A stretch of 64,000 nucleotides of DNA from Amoebidium appalachense (taxonomy: Eukaryota > Protista > Ichthyosporea): contig CAVNZM010000003.1 in the NCBI GenBank assembly GCA_963693365.1, positions 3,605,106 through 3,669,105 of the forward strand. The letters run 5' to 3'. A program made the position numbers and the translations under genes. Positions within the stretch are counted from its first letter, which is position 1. Each line of letters opens with the position of its first letter. The notes below the pieces were generated by a model. It saw only the letters and a list, made by a program, of their open reading frames with translations. It was not told the DNA's origin and searched no databases. Of the stretch, positions 4,680-64,000 are shown piece by piece.

Positions 4680-5500
4680 TCAGTCCATGAGCACCCAGAA
4701 CCACAAAGTGTCGTCCACAATGTACTGAGCACCTTGCAGCTCGGCGGAACCAGTAAACTTGCCCCAGCCACATCCCGGTTCGTTGTCACCTGGGCGGCCA
4801 ACACGAGCCATGAGTCTCGGTCAGCGTCCCCAACAGATGGGTCGATCCATAGAGACTTGTGCTCGCATTTTGGGCTGTGGCCGAGTAGGGTGATGGTGAT
4901 CTTTCTATTGCAGGGCCACTCCAGTGGGCCCAGGCTATCGCTCGTAGTACACAGACACGTGGCCTTTGCCCTCTTCGGTGGTTCTGTTGAAGTACAGCCG
5001 CAGGCGGAAGGTGAAGCCAGAGGGCAGGGTGGCCTTTGCCGTATGCTCTAAGACACCCACTGGCCCAGCCACACCGGCAGCAACACCCCCCACACACACC
5101 GTGACACCCTGTGACAACCGAGGGCTGCCAGCAGCATCGTTTGGAAAGAACCGCTCAATGGGAACCCTCTCCTTCATGATAACCCTCAAACACACAAGGT
5201 CCAGCCGTTCGCGCTTGATCTCGCTAAGTTCCCACTCCAACTCCGACTCTCGTTTTTACCGCTGCTCCCGTTCCGTTTCCAACTCACGCACAAGACCGGC
5301 AAGGCGTGTGTTTTCATTGGCCACCAGCAACACGTGATCGGCCATGTCGGTGACCATGTGCTCCTTGATCTGTGCCGGGAGCATTTTGGCTCCACATCCG
5401 GCCACCGTGCAGGACACTTCCGTCTGGGGGCACACATCTGCCAGGTGTTTCTCCAAGCGACTGCGTGCAACCACCACCCCGCATTCGCAGTCCACCCGAC
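4680..5500 (-). pseudogene. TRAF: TRAF-family pseudogene (TRAF-type Zn fingers, coiled coil, MATH/TRAF domain)
   Basis: Fingers CECGVVVARSRLEKHLADVCP and CTVAGCGAKMLPAQIKEHM; then FTFRLRLYFNRTTEEGKGHVSVY, LEWPCNRKITITLL and RPGDNEPGCGWGKF...YIVDDTLWFWVLMD* (TRAF-C hallmarks). In-frame TAA at 5256-5258, TAG at 4935-4937, and two frameshifts near 4925 and 4815. No introns in this span. Confidence 0.85.
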
Positions 5501-6486
5501 ACCCAGAAGTATGTACTGTTGAAAGCGCGCATCATATGAGAATTGACTTACTGGCATGCAGCTTCATTGTTTATGCACCCACAGGTCACAGCCAAACACC
5601 ATGGTGAGGGACAGAATCAAAACGAATCGCCTAGGTGGAAGTATGTGGTTTGGAAAAGCATCATACCTCTTAGGGGAGAGTGGGGAGCGGGGGAAGGGGG
5701 GGCGGAAGGCGGGGGGGGAGGGGGGAGGGGGGGGATGTGGTGGTGGTGGTCCACGTGGCGGCAGTCGAGGGGGGGTCCATCCACACATCTCTTTGAACCC
5801 CCCTCCCCCCTTTCCTCCCCATTTCTTCCCCCCCCAAGCATCCCATTGCCAAATTTAGAACCCCCCCTCCCCCCCCCTCCCCCCCCCTCCCCCCCCCCCA
5901 AAAAAAAGGCTTTCAGAATAAAACCAGCTGGATGCAGAGGTATGCACGTGAAGGGAGAAAAGCGAGGAAGGAAACGTGATGGGGTTGTAGAAAAGCACTT
6001 AAGGGGAATCAAAAAGGGTAGGAAGATGCAGGGAAGCAAGGAAGAGGGGAGATGGTAAGAAGGGGACGCCTTTAGATAACAGGGGAAACCGAGGAGTGAG
6101 GGAGGGATGGAGTGATTCGGGCTACAGTTACAAAGTGAAGCCGGAAAGGTTCTCTAAAATAGGGATGGGCTACTTGAAGCAGATACTATGCGGAGACCAT
6201 TAGAAGAAAAGGTCGGCAGTTAGAAAATGCTGCAGCAGGAGTTGTAAAAGTAATGCAAGGTTCTTTGCAGTTAGAAGACCGAAGACACACCCATATACAT
6301 ACATAACCGAAGTCTCAGGAGCGGAATCTGATGCCGAGTGCGCATGTGTGAGGGTGGGGTGGCTACGGGGGCAAGGGGGAACAAGGAGAGAGAGGGGGGG
6401 GGGGGGGGGGGGGGGGGGGGGAGGCTTATATAATGATGACAAAGGGTCACTAATTTTGAACCGAAGGAGGGGGGGGGCTTGGCGGG

Positions 6487-17161: not shown

Positions 17162-18473
17162 CCCCTTCCCACACACAAACACATCATAACCCCCCCCCCC
17201 CCCAAAAAAAAAAAAAAAAAAGATAAAATAAAACAATACAAAACAAAACAAAAAAAAAGAACCCCCCCCCCCCCCCCCCCCCAAACGAATTTAAGGTATA
17301 ACCAACCCCAACTCACCATAGGAGACCTCTCCACCAGCGACTGCTTCAACCTCGCCCCCACCGCGTTCATCCCCTGCGCCGCTAACCTTAACCTCGGCTT
17401 AGCCCTTTGCACCGAGTCAACCACCTTCATCCTGTACACGGCCACCAGTTCACTCTTAAGGTTTGTGCCCCTGTTCCCTTCCTCATCGTATTCCCACTCG
17501 AAGAGGCAGTCTCGTACCCACCATGTTGGAACCTGTTGTGTATATTTGGATGTGTGTGTGCGTGTGTGTGTGTGGGAAGGGGGGGGGGGGGGGGGGATGA
17601 GGTGAATGGGAGATTTGGGGAGGGGGAGGGTAGGGGGGGGTTGAGGGGGCGGAGGGAGGGGGGGGGGGGGGGGGGGGAGGGGGGGAGGAGAGGGGGGAGA
17701 GGGTGGGGAGAAGGGAGGAGGTGTGTCTGTGTGTGTGCGCGCGGGAGCGCGCGCGTGTGTGTGCAATATATATGGGCGCTTATGATTTGACGGGTAGGAA
17801 GGAGGGGCAGGTGGCAAGGGGAAGGGAAAGGGGGAGAGGGGGGGGGAGGTTATAGTGTAAGCATTGGAGGGGTGGTGGAACCAAAGACACCAAAGGTTGC
17901 AACAACAGAAATGAAGAAACCAAGTAAATCTGCAGGCATTAGAATCTAATACTACTTATACAGAACCCATCATCAAAGAAGGGGGGGGGGAGGGGGGGGG
18001 GGGATTCTATAGGCACAGAACATGATGTACACAATCCCACCATAGGGGATTCCTTCCCCCCCCCCCCCCCCCCCCCCCCCCCAAACCCCCCTCCCCTCCC
18101 CAACCCAAAATAAAAGGGGGGGGGGGGGGGGGGGGGGAAAGGGGGGGGGGAAGGGGAAAAGAAAAAAAGAAGTGAGAAGAAAAGGATGCAATGTAAACTA
18201 GCTAGGGACCACCCATGAATGGGGGCCCCATGTCATTCATCCACAGTACCCTTGCAGCCCAAATTCGACCCAGCTTCAAATATAGTGGATGGGTTTTTTT
18301 GTGGGATAGGAGGGGCTCCCCGGGGGGGGGGGGGGGGGGGGGGGATGTGCTTCAGAGTACAGAGTGCACGTCTCAGACCCACAACACCATGTAGATTTTG
18401 CAAAAAAAAAAAAGCACACACAAGCAAGTATGCTTGCATGCATCATAAGTAGAGCCCATCCTAATTTTCTTCT

Positions 18474-20258: not shown

Positions 20259-20469
20259 GCATTAACAGCAACAACAACAACAACAATATTAACAACAACA
20301 ATAACAATAATAATAAAGGCAAGGAACAGAAGCATATCAAGAACACCACACACCGTAATGGTCGTCCTGTGCAGCGTTTGGCCTCTTCAACTGGGCCACA
20401 ATCACAGCCACTAGCTCACGGGGCAGAAGGGAGAGATCGTCTGTGATGGCACTGAGCTGCTGCCTGTGT

Positions 20470-20525
<56 letters not shown>

Positions 20526-20784
20526 GAATGCGTCATAAAGTACGAAGTACACAAGAACAAACGGATAACACGTTGCAGAATGCAAGCCATACATAAAGAG
20601 TATGCATAATAAGCAGAGCCCATCCTCAGGGGGGGCCCACGTCATCCACAGTACCCGAGTTTCGACCTATTCACCTCGTTAACGAAACCCAACTCAGATA
20701 CTGTTTCACTTGAACATGGGTAGGTCACCCGTCTTGATCAGAGACGAGCAGGGTTGCTTATGCAGGCAAGGGCAGTGGGAAAGG

Positions 20785-20815
<31 letters not shown>

Positions 20816-20866
20816 TGAGGGAGGAGGGGGAGAGGGAGGAGGGGAAGGGGGGGGGGGGGTGTATGT

Positions 20867-20897
<31 letters not shown>

Positions 20898-22881
20898 GGG
20901 AGAGGGGGGAGGGAAGGAGGGGGAGGAGGGGGTAGATGAGTGTGTGTGTGTGTGTGTGTGTGTGTGTCCAGATGTGTGCGTGTGTGTGTGTGAGGAGGGG
21001 GTGGGTGGATGTGTGTGTGTGTGGATGTGTGTGCGTGCGTGTGTTCATGTGTGTGCATGTGCGCGCGCTTGTGTGTGTCTGTGTGTGTGTGTGTGTGCGT
21101 GCGTGCGTGTGTCCGTGTGCGTATTGTGTGCAGTGCGTGTGGAAATGCGAGTGTAAGTGTGTGTGTGGTTAGCGTCCTGGCCTCACATGAGCGATGAACG
21201 AACAACTTGTAGACAAGCGTCCTTTGCCCATTATTTTTGCATAGTCAGACTAAGGAAGATGCCATACCCCTGTTTTTGAACGTGCGTGTTCGAATTTAGA
21301 CTACTGGGCAGACTTGTGTCTTTGCATGAATTCGCACTGTTGCTAAGTTTTTGCTTGTAATTGCGGGCAAGCATGTGCACACATGTACCCTGACCTGCAT
21401 GTGCGTGTGAGTCCATATGGTGCATGTCTTCGTGTAGTACAAGCAGGTGTCCGTGTAGCACTGCATGTGTCCATGTAGTACAAGCATGTCTTCGTGTAGT
21501 ACAAGCAGGTGTCCGTGTAGCACTGCATGTGTCCATGTAGTACAAGCATGTCTTCGTGTAGTACAAGCAGGTGTCCGTGTAGCACTGCATGTGTCCATGT
21601 AGTACAAGCAAGTCTTCGTGTAGTACAAGCAGGTGTCCGTGTAGCACTGCATGTGTCCATGTAGTACAAGCATGTCTTCGTGTAGTGCAAGCAGGTGTCC
21701 GTGTAGCACTGCATGTGTCCTGTCCATGTAGTACAAGCATGTCTTCGTGTAGTACAAGCAGGGGTCCGTGTAGCACTGCATGTGTCCTGTCCATGTAGTA
21801 CAAGCCTGTCTTCGTGTAGTACAAGCAGGTGTCCGTGTAGCACTGCATGTGTCCTGTCCATGTAGTACAAGCATGTCTTCATGTAGTACAAGCAGGTGTC
21901 CGTGTAGCACTGCATGTGTCCTGTCCATGTAGTACAAGCATGTCTTCGTGTAGTACAAGCAGGTGTCCGTGTAGCACTGCATGTGTCCATGTAGTACAAC
22001 CATGTCTTCGTGTAGTACAAGCAGGTGTCCGTGTAGCACTGCATGTGTCCATGTAGTACAAGCATGTCTTCGTGTAGTACAAGCAGGTGTCCGTGTAGCA
22101 CTGCATGTGTCCATGTAGTACAAGCAGGTGTCCGTGTAGCACTGCATGTGTCCATGTAGTACAAGCATGTCTTCGTGTAGTACAAGCAGGTGTCCGTGTA
22201 GCACTGCATGTGTCCATGTAGTACAAGCATGTCTTCGTGTAGTACAAGCAGGTGTCCGTGTAGCACTGCATGTGTCCATGTAGTACAAGCATGTCTTCGT
22301 GTAGTGCAAGCAGGTGTCCGTGTAGCACTGCATGTGTCCATGTAGTTCAAGCATGTCTTCGTGTAGTACAAGCAGGTGTCCGTGTAGCACTGCATGTGTC
22401 CATGTAGTACAAGCAGGTGTCCGTGTAGCACTGCATGTGTCCATGTAGTACAAGCATGTCTTCGTGTAGTACAAGCAGGTGTCCGTGTAGCACTGCATGT
22501 GTCCTTGCAGCACGTGTGCACGTACCTGTCCAGGTCAACCACCACCACCTCCTCCAGACTGGCCATAGCCGTGACACGTGGCATGTGGGATGAGTGCAGA
22601 CCAATCAGAAAAGGCATAGGGGCAGACACATAGTCTAGTAGCTCCTCCGGTAGAAGGGGCACAAAGATGTGCTGTACGTGTACGAGTGTACGAGTGTACG
22701 TGTGTGTGGGAGTGGGGGGAGGGGGGGTGGGCGTGGGAGTGGGAGTGGGTGTGGGAGTGGGTGTGTGTGTGGGGGGGGGGGGGGGGGGGGGAGGTGGGTG
22801 GGAATGGGAGTGGGTGGGTGTGGGTATGGGTGTGGGTAAGAGCGTGAGTGGGTGAGTGTGGATGGGTGAGTGGGTGCGTGC

Positions 22882-28548: not shown

Positions 28549-29337
28549 GGGGGGAGACGGAGAGAGGGGGGCAGGGATTAAGACAAAAAGGAAAAGGGAA
28601 AAGGGGGGAGGACTCATGATTTGCCAGCAGAAACTACGTGAGGAAGAGGGGGAGGGGGGGGGGGGGGGAGAGTATTTTTTTTTTTGGGGGGGGGGGGGGG
28701 AGGGAGAATGATTAGCCCAACTTTCAGAACATCACGAAAGCGGATGAGGTTATTTGCCCAAAAAGGGGAATGCCGGGAGGAAAGGAGGAGAAAGACAAAG
28801 AAAGGAGGAGGGGGGGGGAAGAGGGGGGCAGGGAGGGGGAGGGGGGGGGGGGGGGTTTGTTCAAGGAAACAGGTACAGGGAACGGAGCGGAGAGGCGGGA
28901 GGTAGAGGTGGGGGGGAAGAGAGGGGGAGGGGGGAGGAGCAGGAGGCAGGGGCGGGGGGGGGGGTTTGAATGCGGAACACGGTACGAAGTACGCATACAC
29001 GAAGGACACATGCAAAGGCAAACATTCAAGTATGCAACATCAGCCATGTGCACAGTATGCGTCATAAGCAGAGCCCATCCTCAGGGAGGACCCAAGTCAT
29101 CAATTGCGTCTGAGTTTCGACCCCTTAGCCCGCGTATATACGACGCTCCAACTCAGACAGCAGCATCAACTGAACTTGGGCGGGTCAACCCGTCTTGATC
29201 AAAGAGGGAGGGGAGGAGCAGGGGGGGAAGCCGGGGGCAGGTGGAGTTGGGGGGTGTGGAAAGTCACGAAGAATAACAGAATACAAAGCAACGTGTGGAG
29301 CTTTCACAATGTGTGTGTGCTGTGTGTGTGTGTGTGT

Positions 29338-35300: not shown

Positions 35301-38201
<2,901 letters not shown>

Positions 38202-42529: not shown

Positions 42530-44317
42530 GGGGGACCCCGGCAGAGATAATTCTACTCGCGACTTCTCTCTACTCCTACTCCACGTGTAGGGAACATGGT
42601 TGAGATAATTCTAGGTAGTAGTTGTACATGAGAATATTATTTCTTTATCTGATGCAAAGGGAGGGGAACCTTTAATTTTCTTAGTTTTCAAGAGGTACAG
42701 GCCTAGAGAAGGAGTAGAGAGAGACAGGGAACCCCGGCAGAGATAATTCTACTCGCACATTCGCCCTACTCTTACTCTGGGAAGGGGGCGCGGGGGGGGG
42801 GGGGGGGGGGGGGGGGGGGAGAGAAGGAGGGGGGGGGGGGGAGGGGGGGGGATGGGTTCGAAATCTTAAGGTCCCAGACTAATTCAAAAAAAAAAAAAAA
42901 GAAAGAAAAGAAAGAAAAAAAAAGAGAAAAAAAAAAAGAAAGAAAGACAGGGAAATAAAAAGAAAAAAAGAAAGGAAAAGCCGGGTTATGCTGAAATGGT
43001 TTCGGTTGTACCTGGAAAGCCGGCTCTTATGGGTATTTTGTTTGGGATTAAGTCGTCGTAATAGATCGATAAATCCTACATCTCTTTAGAACTTATAATT
43101 AGCAAACCGTGGCCCGCCATTTTTCTTCCCCTTCCCCCCCCCTCCCCCCCCCCTATTTTATTCTAAATTTTGTGCTATCTGTGTTGCAGCTCACTCATTG
43201 CAATCCCATTATTTGCAGGTGGTTTTTCAAGGTCCTCCTCGTCCTGATGTCGCCATACATTGCCCTGTGCTCTTTCGAAATCGCTCTGTTCGCGCGATTG
43301 GGCTATGAGGGATACTGGGACACCATGTACCCGCTATACCTCTACTACGCAAGCGTCGTTCCGGATTTTATCTACCAAATACTCTCGCTGATTATGTGCC
43401 TCGGTCTTTTCTATATGAGAAAAGTGCTCCGGCCTTATCATCTCGATCAGTGGCACGTGCTTCTACCGATGTACATTTCCACAATCGTGATTTATGTTGG
43501 CGTCCTTACGGTCGACCTTGTGATTCGCGCAGACACTCTTGTTGCTGAAGTGTGCGCGTGGGTGGCAGCAATACTATCTGTATTTCTATCATACTATATA
43601 TATTATATTTGGATATCACAACTACGGAGAATAGTCCTCCAAACAAAACAGTCAAAGGGTTCAGGCAAATCCGCTTCGACAGCACCTTCATCCAGATCTT
43701 CGCCATCTTCGACCAATCGCACGGAGTTTGGCGCCGTTTTCACCCAATCACGATCTCCCGTTGCGTCTTTGATGCTTTTCAGCCCCGCGCCAAGTCGCCG
43801 TGCGAGCCGCATCCCAAGCGCCGGTGGGCGGTGCAGCGTAGATTCCATCGCCGAAGACGAGAACCAATCAAAATACATGTTTAATTCTGCGGCGGAATGT
43901 CATTGGTCGCCTTTGGCGTCACCACGGCCCGCACGATCTCCGAATTTAACCAGCATGCACACAATATCAAATCCGGCAAGTCAAGCGGCCAGCCCTCAAC
44001 CTGACCATCGTCAAGAACGTGCGTGGGGTAGTTGTGACTACAGCGCGTTCAATAGACTTACCCGTCTACTTGTTAGCAGCAACAACTTGAAGATGGAAGA
44101 CACTGCGCGCATGTGTCTTAGCGACGGTTTGCCGTCCGATAGGCAGAAGCGGAGTTCCGGAGGGAAAAGTCCCGGCACCAGCCCACAAACCTCACCTGTG
44201 CTGTCAAGAACCGTCGTGGCACCACAGGCAGTTTCGAGGATAAAAGATGTTGCAAGCCACAGAGCACTTTCGGAGATTATTTACGAGGGACGGATCAGTA
44301 GTACTAGCTCACTGTGA
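40383..44317 (+). CDS. orphan seven-transmembrane (GPCR-like) protein B, ~523 aa (exons 40383-40691, 42084-42247, 43219-44317)
   Basis: Same intron positions and the same 164-nt exon 2 length as paralog A; N-terminal NTT/NNT sequons; long Ser/Pro/Arg-rich C-tail; alternative in-frame ATG at 40311. Confidence 0.85.
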
Positions 44318-48371: not shown

Positions 48372-49730
48372 TCAACAAATCAGCACCAACCCACACTCCA
48401 GCGCATATTGAACCGCCATTCTCCTCAGTGCCTCTTCCTTCCTCTTTTCCTCCACCGCCCTTGCATGTCTTGCCCGCCTCTTTTCCAAAAGCACCCCATG
48501 ATTCTCCGGGTCCCAGTATTTGTGACTCAGACCGTGTTTGTTGCAGAGCACTAAGTTATCGGGACCTGTGCGCCAATGTGGTTTTTTCAAATTCACCATA
48601 AAAGGGTTGTCACAAAACTCTTTTCCATCAATGGGCACGTCGCAGGCTTCTCCGTCTTTATCGACAAAGTGCCACATGCAATTAAACCAACTCTCCGGTT
48701 TGTCCATGGTTAGTCTCCACCCTAGCGTGCGGGCACATAATGCGGCAAGGCGCGGAACATGCCGGGCGATTTTAGGACGTGGTCCACTCGAAGTGTCGGG
48801 GTCGACGTCGGCCTCATGGGGCCATTCCACTTGAGGGGCAACTTGAGTGGTGGTTGCCACAGCGGGGAGAGTTTGAGACACGTTATCTAAGTTCAAGAGG
48901 GGCTGGGTGGTGGTTTTTAAAGGAGGTAGGGTGGCCGTAACGGTTGTCGCTTCGGTTTTGCTTTTCTTCGTAGAACCTTTGCCCGTAGAGGCGCTACGCT
49001 TGTTCTTCTTAGGTGACGCGTCTAGTTTCCCGGGTGTTTCTGCGTCATTACATTCGTTGTTGTTATGACTTTTACCGGTGGGTACGCGTGTCGTATTTGA
49101 AACTGGGGGAGAAAAACAAGATGGGTGGGTGGATGAAGTGATCGGGTCGGGCTGCGGTGTTAAATTTGGAGTTGTGGTTGTGGCTGCCACCTGTGCATCC
49201 ACTTGGGGGGACTGCTGTTGCGCAACGGTCTCCACCCATGTCTCTGGCTCTGCGGAAGGAGTATTCACATGCACGGGCGGGTATACGAAATGATTTGCTG
49301 CAGAAAATGTATTATCGGGGACGGTGTTGTCATCCACGAGAATGTTCCCCTTTTCGAGTTGAGGGGCAGGTGGGTCGACGGGATTCAATTGAAAGCTGCC
49401 ATTGTGCACGTGGGGGGCAGATCTCGAGGAGGAAGCGTCGTTTGGCAATCCAAGCACCATATCCACAGGGGGTTCGGGGTTCATCTGCACAAGACCATCA
49501 CTGCCCACCGCGGCTGGTAACGAAAACTTTGGCTGTGTTGTAGAGACGTTAACGTATGTAGAGGCAGAAGGTGGTGGTGAAAGAGGGTTGTATCCTTCGT
49601 CGTCGAAGAGAGGGGGCAGGAGATGTTCTGGGGGGATTGCAAGGTCATACTCTCGCTGTGGCGTATCAAAGTCGCGTGTCTCATACATTTCCATGTTGTA
49701 TGGAGAGGAATATGCCGAATTTTCGTCCAT
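48372..49730 (-). CDS. intronless 452-aa protein with an atypical GATA-like zinc finger; putative transcription factor
   Basis: Open non-repetitive ORF; acidic/Pro/Thr-rich N-terminus; basic PKKNKR patch; CDNPFMVNLKKPHWRTGPDNLVLCNKHGL resembles the GATA TPxWRxGPxGxxxLCNACGL motif and is followed by a basic tail. Confidence 0.8.
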   Translation of the reverse strand: MDENSAYSSPYNMEMYETRDFDTPQREYDLAIPPEHLLPPLFDDEGYNPLSPPPSASTYVNVSTTQPKFSLPAAVGSDGLVQMNPEPPVDMVLGLPNDASSSRSAPHVHNGSFQLNPVDPPAPQLEKGNILVDDNTVPDNTFSAANHFVYPPVHVNTPSAEPETWVETVAQQQSPQVDAQVAATTTTPNLTPQPDPITSSTHPSCFSPPVSNTTRVPTGKSHNNNECNDAETPGKLDASPKKNKRSASTGKGSTKKSKTEATTVTATLPPLKTTTQPLLNLDNVSQTLPAVATTTQVAPQVEWPHEADVDPDTSSGPRPKIARHVPRLAALCARTLGWRLTMDKPESWFNCMWHFVDKDGEACDVPIDGKEFCDNPFMVNLKKPHWRTGPDNLVLCNKHGLSHKYWDPENHGVLLEKRRARHARAVEEKRKEEALRRMAVQYALECGLVLIC

Positions 49731-50065
49731 TTTTGCAACTAGTTATCATGTGTTTGAAGGAGAAACCTGGTTTGGAAAGACACCGCGATTACACATGCAA
49801 CGCGAACTCTTCGAAGAGCAACAGAAGCCTGCCTGAACACAGGCCTGCTGACTATTAAAGCAGTAGTAGTTATCTGTGCGAAAACCCCCCCAAAAAAACC
49901 GGTGTGTTTCATGAGTTCAGTGCGAATTCGTGTAGACATGTGCTTGCATCGAGGCATGTACGTATCGGAGGGTCTAAATAGAGTCAGGGCGGCCGCGCTT
50001 TGCTTTTGTCGAGCCTCGGAAGCAATCGTGAATCGCCATCTATGTCATAAAAAACGTCCCTTTTG

Positions 50066-51480: not shown

Positions 51481-52634
51481 CAAGAAACTGTTGGTACAAA
51501 CACACCCACCCACACTGGCATGTACACACACATACACAGACACACACACGTGCACCCTGCATACATACACACCACACTGCACACTGTACATACATACACA
51601 CACACCATAACCGTTAACACAAAACACACACATGCACACAATGTCATGCACACACACAAACACAAACACACACACACACACACACACACACGTGCACATG
51701 TGCACACATGCACACAACATAGACACACACACACCGATTACCGCTGACACAAATACACACGTGCACCCACACCTGTACACAAACACACACACACACCGTG
51801 CATACATACCCACCACACACACACACACAATGGCAAAGAAAAATACTCACACACACACAAACACAAACACAACCAACCAACGTGATTTTCTTCCCCCCCC
51901 CCCCCCCCCCTCCTCCCCCCCCCCTCCCCCAAACATTCGATTTCTGCCTGAGCTTCCCATGTTGCTGCCTCAACTCACTCCCCTCCCTCCCACCCCCCCC
52001 TCCCCCCCCCCCCCCTCCCCCTCCCCTCCCTCCCCTCCCCTCCCCCAGAAACTACTTGACGGTTACTAGGTGCTGGTGTGTTGTCAGAGATCCAATTTAT
52101 TTGAAAGGGTTGGCAAGTATACACATTGTGCACCCTGTTCCAGTCAAAAGCTACACTAGGAAATCTGCCAGACTCTATAGCCTTCTTTTGGGCTGCTGCC
52201 TCGGCCACCTGGGCCTTTTCCAGCTGCTCCTTGGCCCCCTCTACAGTCAACCCTTTCAGTTTGCCCTCCTTAACTAATTTCTTAGCCAGTTCTTTCTGAA
52301 ACCTAAGCTCAGCTTTCACATGCTTCACATCTGCCTCTATATCCGGCCCATTCATGGCTATCATGAGCTGATTGTGCACTGTCTGTGTTGTCATACGTGC
52401 TTTGAAGAAGTCTCAATGATATTCACACCAGAGAAGCCACGTTCACTTGTTGCATTACTAATTGGGATTATTCTCACAATGTTAACCAACTCAAGTACAA
52501 GTACTCAAGTTTACTGATGCGCGACGATTACGATTTTTTGTGGGCCTGCTCCGACGGAGCATTCCGATTTTCGAAGATTTTCCGAAACGGGATTTCGACT
52601 TCCGTTAATGGGCTCCACCGTCCTTCGAACCCTG
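50340..52634 (-). mobile_element. non-autonomous (internally deleted) hAT DNA transposon
   Basis: 12-bp TIRs CAGGGTTCGAAG (50340-50351) and CTTCGAACCCTG (52623-52634); 8-bp TSD tatgagct (50332-50339) vs catgagct (52635-52642); contains a hAT dimerisation-domain remnant. Confidence 0.9.
52070..52500 (-). pseudogene. hAT transposase C-terminal dimerisation domain remnant
   Basis: LELVNIVRIIPISNATSERGFSGVNIIET, then a frameshift, then RMTTQTVHNQLMIAMNGPD; matches the P.S.A.xERGFS...R.RL...LM.I..NGP pattern. Confidence 0.8.
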
Positions 52635-54851
52635 CATGAGCTGTGCGCAGAGCTGTACAGAGCCTCCTGTCAAGAATTGCGATTGGATGCTTCGTAATCA
52701 CCCCAGATTTTGTTAACACTTTGTTAACACCTTCATATACTGTCATTGTAGCTGTACCTTATTTCCGAGGTCTATGTAAAAAACAATTTGTTCGCATTTA
52801 ACGAACACTTTTAAATTCAATTATGTTAAAAAATTTATGTTCAGTTACCTGTCATAGCGGAATTGACTGTTAGGAGTCCGACTCATTCGGACATGTATAC
52901 AAACAAATATATATCGATTTGGCCGATCGCGATTGCGAATTCGGTGTCCATCATTCAAAAAAAATTTTTTTTATTATAATGACATTATTGATATTCTCGT
53001 CAAAATAGAGATAATCGAGATATCACAGATATCTCAGCGAAGAAAATACAAAAAAACCTTACTCTCGGATACGGATAAGATAACGACTAAGATAATCATA
53101 CACCTTAGAAAACTCATGAAACATTCGGTGATAAACACCCCCATTTAACAGATAGTCAATAGACGTAATATCAGGGTTATCTAAATAAGCCAGCCTTCTA
53201 ATTATTTTTTTTTTAAGGCCAAAAATTGAATTTGAACCTATTGACCACCACCTCAAGGTTTGCGTGTGGAAACAGCTTCCTTTCCGTTTTCTCAATGCTA
53301 CAGCAAAATGACACTATTGGGTTGTAAAATGCCTACATATAAACTGAGATTTGAGTGATCGAGACATTGAAACCCAACAATGGTGGTTTTGGGGGAAACG
53401 CACCTTTTCACGGCAAGCCAATCATCAAGCCAGCGAGCAGTTGTTTGCTTTGCAACTTTTTAGTGCCAACTTCCAAGGTCCCCCTGAGCCAGCAGTTGGG
53501 GACAACAAACAAAATGGTTTTTTTTTTTTTTTTTTTGTTGGTCCAGCTGCAACTGCAAGCGTAAGGTTAACGTTGCTTACGCCTTAAAAAACAGAAGATA
53601 CTTCCCTCTTGTCGTAAAAGTTTCGGCAGCTATTCCAGGCTAGCTATCATGAGACTACACTAGTACTGAAGCCCAGCATAAGTCGATTTTCGCTGTGCTA
53701 TTGGCTGCTAGATAAAGGAGGACACTTACCATACATACCTCCGTGATCACTGACACTGAGTGGGCGCTATTCGAGGAAACAGGCTGACGTAACCATTATT
53801 TCAACGTGAATTCACCGAATTTGGCTGGCATAGAGATGTTCACACGTGCCTCAGGAACGCCTGCTGCAGCTGCCCCAGCTTGAAAGATTTGATGGCACAT
53901 CATGAGCTTCATCACGGCATGCATTCACACAAACAAATTCAAAGCTTCTTCATAATGAGACCAGTGGTTGTGGTGACCGGTAATGGTTGTATTAAATGTA
54001 TGGTGAGGGTTCATAATTCGGGACAATGAAGGACATGTACATTCAATCAAAGACGTCGATAACAAAAAAGAAATAAGAAAACCGCTGCCCTTGCTACCAC
54101 AGTGTCTGTATGGATCCAAGATGATATCAGTAAAAAAGGCAATACATGTTCATGTAAACCTGAAGGTCCAAGCTTGGCCGGTGTGCGTGCAAATGCCATT
54201 CTGACAGCTCGGCACATGGAACATTCCAAATCGCTTCGGGCTGCAGCCTGGTGGGTGCGACTCTGGCCATCCCTGCGGCTTACAGTGGCTTTCACTCTGC
54301 TGTCAATTGTTGCCTCTTGGCTCTCTCACGTATGCATATACCGTACGGTATTCCCGAGGTACGGTGACAGGGTTCGCGCATCACGGTACCTGCAGCACCA
54401 GCTGTATGCCGAATCTACATAATCAGAGGTACGGTGAAGTGAACTCCTCCTACTTCCCTCCCCCCACCCACCCACCCACCCACCATGACCACCCGTTTGG
54501 AATGCACCGCACCTGTGCGAGAGAGAGATTTAGGGAGGGAGGGAAGGGGGGGGAGGGGGGGAGGGGGGAGGGGGGGGGGGGGGGAAGAAAGGGAGGGAGG
54601 GAGGGAGGGAGGGAGGGGCGGAGGGAGGGAGCAAGGGAGGGAAGGAGGGAGTTTTGGTGGGTGGGTGGTTGGGTGAGTGGGTGGGTGGTCGGGAGAGGGA
54701 GAGACAGAGAGAGAGAGAGAGAGCGAGAGAGAGAGGGGGGGGGGGGGGGGGGAGGGAGGGAGGAGAGAGAGACTCGGGGGGGGGGGGGGGGGGGGGGGGA
54801 GGGGGGGAGGGGGGGAAAGAGAGAGCGGGGGCGGGGGGAGGGAGAGAGAGA

Positions 54852-56793: not shown

Positions 56794-63707
<6,914 letters not shown>

Positions 63708-64000
63708 CTGTGTGTGTGTGTGTGTGTGAGGGGGGGGGGGGGGGGGGAGAAGGGAAAAAGGGAGGAGACGGGGGGAGGGAGGGAGGGGGGGGGGGGAGGG
63801 GGGGAGGACGGGAAGGGGTGGGGAGAGGAAGATGTGTTGATTGTAAATATATAACGGAGCCAACGTTCAAAGACTAAGGAAGAGATGATAGATATAGCAA
63901 AGTAAAGGCATGGAACTTTGGAGATATGTGGAGCGGGGAGGATAGGGGTGTTCTGCTCCGTTCAAATTTTTTTTTTTTTTTTTTTTTTTGAGGGGGGGGG

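Follow-up and report, generated by a model that had tools for sequence, protein, structure and literature searches.

The window analysed here is a stretch of 64,000 nucleotides from the ichthyosporean Amoebidium appalachense (contig CAVNZM010000003.1 of assembly GCA_963693365.1, positions 3,605,106 to 3,669,105); positions below count from its first letter. A DENN gene (DENND1-like) lies on the minus strand, and its introns contain three copies of a short repeat, all in the sense orientation. Copies 1 and 2 are 77% identical across 152 columns (E 4e-22), and copy 3 is a fragment. All three copies end in C runs. A preliminary description, made from the letters alone, presented the repeat as an unrecognised structured RNA with a kink-turn (K-turn) and a pseudoknot, drifting in sequence while keeping its pairing. 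All helices named in it are present in copies 1 and 2. It is very probable that the repeat is a hammerhead-derived fold.

The hammerhead core (CUGANGA, GAAA, and UH) is intact at 16 of 16 positions and identical in both full copies, compared with 94 identical positions of 130 elsewhere (P about 0.006, for positions picked from the hammerhead consensus). The invariant parts pointed out in the preliminary description are the hammerhead GAAA and the CUGAGGA core. Its long-range pairing gaccua/uagguc, with 6 bp in copy 1 and 5 bp in copy 2, is stem II, because GAAA comes right after the 3' strand. Its helix B is stem III, because it begins with A15.1-U16.1 (20660-20692), followed by U17. Thirteen pairs of this helix are found in copy 1, but the claimed 14th pair is U17 with A14. 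The supposed hairpin CCC-UGAGGAU-GGG is better read as the 3' strand of stem I, the CUGAGGA core, and the closing strand. The three bases 3' of U17 pair with the three bases preceding CUGAGGA and constitute stem I. Stems I, II, and III measure 3, 6, and 13 bp in copy 1 and 4, 5, and 9 bp in copy 2, and all three adjoin the core.

Because both a complete hammerhead core and stem I are present, the element is, judged from its letters, a rearranged member of a known ribozyme class, not of an unknown class. The ribozyme-like and retrozyme-like options raised earlier thus pointed in the right direction, but a new class was wrongly considered, as the complete core and stem I had been missed. Canonical hammerheads of types I, II, and III were rejected. 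The block order does not fit their circular order, and a search of the window for known Rfam families returned no match at the gathering score.

The 5' to 3' order of the element is P0-HP1-II5'-helix A-K-turn-III-cut site-I5'-HP2-II3'-GAAA-III'-helix A'-I3'-CUGAGGA-U-P0' (Table 1). The block order of cut site, GAAA, and CUGANGA corresponds to the non-circular order S-G-C. The CUGANGA block is opened at A9-G10.1, with the 5' strand of stem II located 103 nt upstream of A9. Stem II adjoins G12, yet it has no link to A9. A9 is followed by one U and then P0, and the partner strand of P0 leads via HP1 into G10.1. P0 is the closing helix already reported for copy 1; copy 2 is without its 5' strand. 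[quoted passage not shown] Both copies have the K-turn in its standard form (PMC8191799; kink angle 50 degrees), with a 3-nt bulge and G.A and A.G pairs between two helices. As had been described, the next pair is A.G in copy 1 and U.U in copy 2.

P0 is proposed to stack on HP1, which would keep A9 and G10.1 neighbours despite the 103 nt between them along the chain. Helix A may take over the role of the contact between stems I and II. With its split CUGANGA block, the element would fall outside the six block orders of hammerheads. A literature search for this split-core wiring, judged mainly from listings, found no description, and subscription papers and unopened supplements could contain one.

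Table 1. Copies of the repeat, parts of copy 1, and the intron that contains it.
Feature	Position	Strand	Remarks
Copy 1 of the repeat	20521..20785	minus	~265 nt; C runs on both flanks
Copy 2, second subfamily	about 28963..29235	minus	G10.1 29186, U16.1 29151, G12 29118, C3 29084; 5' strand of P0 lost
Copy 3, 5'-truncated fragment	18339..18462	minus	Starts within the CUGAGGA core; C run at end; nhmmer E 8e-5
P0 5' strand, closing helix	20751..20764	minus	Pairs with 20603-20621; holds the opened A9-G10.1 link
Hairpin HP1, directly ahead of G10.1	20727..20749	minus	8 bp; loop has a 6-nt palindrome; pair probabilities 0.82-0.89
Stem II 5' strand	20721..20726	minus	G10.1 at 20726; 6 bp with 20664-20669; U-A to C-G in copy 2
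Helix A 5' strand, C-stem of the K-turn	20711..20720	minus	9 bp with 20636-20644, one bulged U; bridges far ends of stems I and II
K-turn bulged strand	20705..20710	minus	3-nt bulge, then G, A, A; partner 20645-20647
Stem III 5' strand	20692..20704	minus	U16.1 at 20692; 13 bp with 20648-20660
Predicted cleavage site	20690..20691	minus	After U17 (20691); triplet GUU; by analogy with hammerhead numbering
Stem I 5' strand, second pseudoknot	20688..20690	minus	3 bp with 20630-20632; 4 bp in copy 2, G-C to A-U
Hairpin HP2, linker between stems I and II	20674..20687	minus	Both copies have a perfect palindrome of 10 nt
Stem II 3' strand and GAAA core	20660..20669	minus	C11.1 20664, G12 20663, A15.1 20660
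Stem I 3' strand, CUGAGGA core, and one extra U	20622..20632	minus	C3 20629 to A9 20623
U-rich 3' tail of copy 1	20521..20600	minus	Less conserved (47/78 identical between copies); stops at C run
Host intron (GT-AG) of DENND1-like gene	20464..22525	minus	Contains copy 1, 57 nt ahead of the 3' splice site

Non-circularly permuted hammerheads of type SGC and type CSG cleave in vitro (Eckert et al. 2023, PMC10085705). Type SGC shares with the present element the chain order of cut site, GAAA, and CUGANGA, the pseudoknots made by stems I and II, and a helix bridging the far ends of these two stems. The present element differs from both types: P0 and HP1 interrupt its block at A9-G10.1, and its bridging helix is connected with stem III by a K-turn. 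It is a repeat in a eukaryotic genome, whereas the sequences of Eckert et al. come from metatranscriptomes and metagenomes.

A plain type-SGC ribozyme would have an intact CUGANGA block, a stem II made from the bases after the core with a 2-nt insertion, and the upstream pairing as an off-switch. The 5' strand of stem II placed just after CUGANGA gives 0 bp without an insert, 2 bp with 1 nt, and 4-6 G.U-rich bp with 2 nt: 4 bp (two G.U) in copy 1 and 6 bp (three G.U) in copy 2. Insertions of 1-2 nt are allowed in type SGC (PMC10085705). However, this stem is weaker than the upstream one by 3.6-4.5 kcal/mol (-2.2 vs. -6.7 and -5.1 vs. -8.7 kcal/mol), competes with P0, and leaves a matched change of the stem II pair 20722/20668 unexplained. 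By eye, it is also unavailable in the coral, octopus, and acanthocephalan tails of Naiad, a group of Penelope-like retroelements. A plain type-SGC ribozyme is, therefore, very improbable, and the split core remains the preferred structure.

Naiad and the related Chlamys elements were characterized by Craig et al. (2021, PMC8557442). The present repeat shows 5' truncation, partial tandem copies, and a simple-repeat target, as members of these groups do. Naiad and most Chlamys elements were reported to be without canonical hammerheads, and "half cores" were noted. By eye, the same order, with P0 and HP1 before G10.1, was observed in eight Naiad consensus tails in the supplement of that paper. 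They are from a ctenophore, coral (three near-identical tails), a box jellyfish, an acanthocephalan, and octopus (two tails), and their stem sequences are unrelated to those of the present element. The ctenophore tail has a stem I of just 2 bp. The box jellyfish tail matches the present element in K-turn orientation and in its CUGAGGA-U core, and its HP1 loop is palindromic. Among 15 places listed in the supplement for two GAAAC-containing motifs, seven have the present wiring, one is of type CSG, and seven show nothing. This survey covered part of the 54 Naiad and 49 Chlamys families, with names taken from headers and table order. Type CSG, known before from two metagenome sequences, is found in nematode Naiad tails and in one spider tail (supplement S5; for one motif, among the 28 of 53 places listed). 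Thus, the Naiad clade holds two non-circular hammerhead forms.

The rewired core, the 5' truncation, the partial tandems, and the simple-repeat targets are common to Naiad and the present element. Naiad is described from animal hosts only, and its usual target is given as (TA)n, whereas the present element has a (C)n end, an ichthyosporean host, and no open reading frame (ORF) in the window. Neither a reverse transcriptase nor a GIY-YIG motif was found within the 64 kb. Chlamys and non-autonomous forms such as MRC1 (PMC8557442) resemble the present element in their (C)n and (CA)n targets, head-to-tail insertions, and non-animal hosts. In contrast to the present element, the Chlamys matches viewed (motif searches, a subset of families) do not include the rewired core. 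Minimal type I Penelope hammerheads and non-long-terminal-repeat retrozymes (PMC4209133; bioRxiv 10.64898/2026.07.22.740005) share with it a ribozyme in the terminal repeat, an extra base after A9, proposed dimer action, and mostly lone genomic copies. Those Penelope hammerheads are of type I, and their tiny palindromic stem III is the dimer contact, whereas the present element has a long stem III and a pseudoknotted order. The repeat likely belongs to a Penelope-like retroelement of the Naiad/Chlamys type, either as its 3' end or as a non-autonomous form.

A selected RNA fold and a mobile-element origin, both raised in the preliminary description, are supported. Five double-sided pair changes distinguish copy 1 from copy 2 (one in stem II, one in helix A, two in stem III, and one in stem I); since the alignment consists of two full copies, this covariation is descriptive, not statistical within the family. 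Of 90 pairing cells, 93% pair, compared with 29-42% in slid controls, and 23 of 500 shuffles reach this value. At least half of the sampled words of the element are contained in 20 of 24 sequencing runs (6 organism codes, 6 studies). In four runs, matching read contigs number 2883 of 1.68 million (X1), 5083 of 2.24 million (X5), 13 (X16), and 3 (X12), where contig counts are not equal to copy counts. Contigs less than 90% alike number 517 in X1 and 391 in X5. No RNA run is listed among the runs that contain the element, and three contigs of 31-38 nt from a run presumed to be RNA carry no information on expression. Within 20535-20775, to which the read-contig coverage is confined, both sides of the stem II pair 20722/20668 vary at similar depth shares (4.6%/5.6% in X1 and 3.8%/2.8% in X5). 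The commonest change in stem I (41% in X1, 35% in X5) retains a G.U pair. Loose contig ends show truncations running into poly-C. A head-to-tail joint of copies is seen in one contig, and one contig represents a form with a shorter stem III. Family patterns had no match in viral contigs, in metagenome contigs, or in prokaryote genome contigs, and no further full copies were obtained from them. Telomere-like repeat letters are present inside the element in one contig, with the joint at 20662-20652.

By analogy with known hammerheads, the element is probably active in cleavage, and the cut is predicted between 20691 and 20690 on the minus strand. Alternatively, a hammerhead-derived fold without activity could have been kept as a signal that serves the reverse transcriptase of the retroelement in recognition or packaging, or as a K-turn bound by a protein. 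The GUU site, the short stem I, the strain expected in cis, and the persistence of copies in sense introns are compatible with such a fold, and minimal Penelope hammerheads show low activity (PMC4209133). However, every catalytic position is retained both in the element and in the Naiad tails viewed, and U17 is frequent among predicted Hydra-clade Penelope hammerheads. We consider an inactive fold improbable. No literature on cleavage rates with U17 was found.

If the element is active, the next question is whether one copy suffices. Hammerhead stems II and III stack end to end, and because of this stacking a single copy of the element is predicted not to close on itself. In a rod model, which is crude (assumed rise, core layers, and linker reach) and for short-stem relatives borderline rather than prohibitive, the closure gap is 43-60 Å and the reach 24-38 Å for copies 1 and 2. 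In the model, a ring forms from two or three units. Because this model gives no closure in cis, the copies are likely to act in pairs; given activity, we would put such two-copy action at about even chances. A dimeric mode of action has been proposed for Penelope hammerheads (Cervera and de la Pena 2014, PMC4209133). The same ribozyme might instead cut as a single molecule, if helix A is turned back by the K-turn to lie along stem III and fraying or bending takes up the slack. The 50 degree angle of the K-turn stands at a suitable place for this, short-stem relatives are near closure in the rod model, and the 3n position in copy 1 is G, a sequence that folds in ions. A few type-SGC ribozymes share a similar direct link, which their authors left geometrically unexplained (PMC10085705). 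Nevertheless, for copies 1 and 2 the gap was larger than the reach in every 50-degree case tried, and cutting by a single molecule seems rather unlikely to us.

With two copies, the apical loop of one copy, carrying the cut site and GAAA, would dock on the base of the second, carrying the 5' strand of stem II and CUGAGGA. The docking partners could be the two terminal repeats of one Penelope-type transcript. The cut would release the RNA, and a partner reverse transcriptase/endonuclease would copy it into C runs. Single copies lying in host introns would show little cutting. In its strongest form, this is a split-core hammerhead that is unable to fold on itself and cuts only as a K-turn-hinged ring of two or three copies, sensing tandem terminal repeats, maybe gated by the host K-turn protein Snu13, and carried by Naiad-type retroelements since before the split of animals and ichthyosporeans. 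We offer this form tentatively and would not expect it to hold in full.

Taken together, our overall reading is a Naiad/Chlamys-type repeat with a complete non-circular hammerhead core, predicted to be cut after U17, likely by two copies together, and we hold it with fairly good confidence. Several observations weigh against it. Besides the two-copy alignment, the crude rod model, the Chlamys matches, and the negative search of the window for reverse transcriptase and GIY-YIG motifs mentioned above, Eckert et al. assume that the CUGANGA block and its neighbouring stems are never split (PMC10085705). A descriptor for the core order speaks in favour of the reading, as copies 1 and 2 are its sole matches in 128 kb (both strands of the window) and it had 0 and 2 matches in 20000 dinucleotide shuffles, but it was composed with the copies already in view. 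With just 3-4 bp in stem I and a potential pairing of U17 with A14 (probability 0.63), cutting would be slowed. The read-contig variants are unphased depth sums. They show no protection of the core, because one of the 16 variant sites in the block falls in it (U4, 0.5%), close to the 1.8 expected by chance. Pair-breaking variants without a listed partner change occur at 20730 (10%, X5), 20636 (2%), and 20640 (22%). The folding energy of the 196-nt region is ordinary (z 0.12), with no extra stability and no support for the fold. The palindromes of HP1 and HP2 were rejected as strong evidence for a dimer; they are compatible with one, but a 10-nt palindrome arises in 15% of shuffles, and three of the five distinct Naiad HP1 loops viewed are not palindromic.

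The preliminary description also suggested a riboswitch-like RNA or an intronic ribonucleoprotein. A host function of this kind, including box C/D-like and selenocysteine insertion sequence (SECIS)-like RNAs, would fit the standard K-turn. SECIS elements have a UGA/GA quartet and unpaired adenines 11-12 nt above it, and are located in the 3' untranslated regions of selenoprotein genes. The U.U after the G.A pairs in copy 2 resembles SECIS and box C/D motifs. However, the adenine run that SECIS needs at the 5' side of the apical loop is missing. A SECIS was rejected because of this and the intronic position of the copies, despite quartet-like pairs; SAM-I and c-di-GMP-II riboswitches, like other known families, had no Rfam match. 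Some Naiads carry SECIS elements (PMC8557442). What is conserved are the letters of hammerhead catalysis. The sense orientation, shared by all three copies, follows the strand bias of the poly-C target: the DENND1-like gene has 44 C runs on its sense strand and 11 on the other. Because of this bias, the orientation needs no RNA function, and we dropped it as a sign of one. A host RNA of this type is hardly credible, and hammerhead catalysis is the preferred explanation of the conserved letters.

The closest named relative of the DENND1-like gene is a protein of Ichthyophonus hoferi (60%, compared with 44-52% for the named animal matches; 10 of 140 matches were looked up). Among 75 entries, for nine exon pieces, this protein ranks first for six (one being the query itself), second for one, and twelfth for one, and is absent for one. 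This points to a host that is probably an ichthyosporean, in agreement with the source of the window. The intron that contains copy 1 also has a tandem array with units of ~60 nt at 21421-22513. Elsewhere in the window, a TRAF-type zinc finger is encoded at 4938-5531 (minus strand); after it come a coiled coil and, recognized by eye, a MATH-like stretch. Two similar-looking multi-pass membrane ORFs without a Pfam family are located at 37404-38198 and 43103-44314 (plus strand), and word-indexed protein searches, one of them with the second of these ORFs, returned no homologue. At 48375-49742 (minus strand) is an ORF of 456 aa that lacks a Pfam match and whose C-terminal part is rich in Cys and His. 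ORF pieces at 51978-52760 (minus strand), also with no Pfam match, resemble the C-terminus of a hAT-type transposase. Exons at 56797-63873 (minus strand) encode calcium-binding EGF, thrombospondin, and PAN domains of an adhesion-type gene.

If the split core is true, the element is a natural hammerhead beyond the six block orders thought to be exhaustive. It would provide a candidate ribozyme, with an exact predicted cut site, for Naiad elements, which were reported to lack one. It would also place non-circular hammerheads in a eukaryotic genome, in many copies and outside animals. Poor cutting by lone copies would suggest how a self-cutting RNA could reside in sense introns and leave the transcripts of its host intact.
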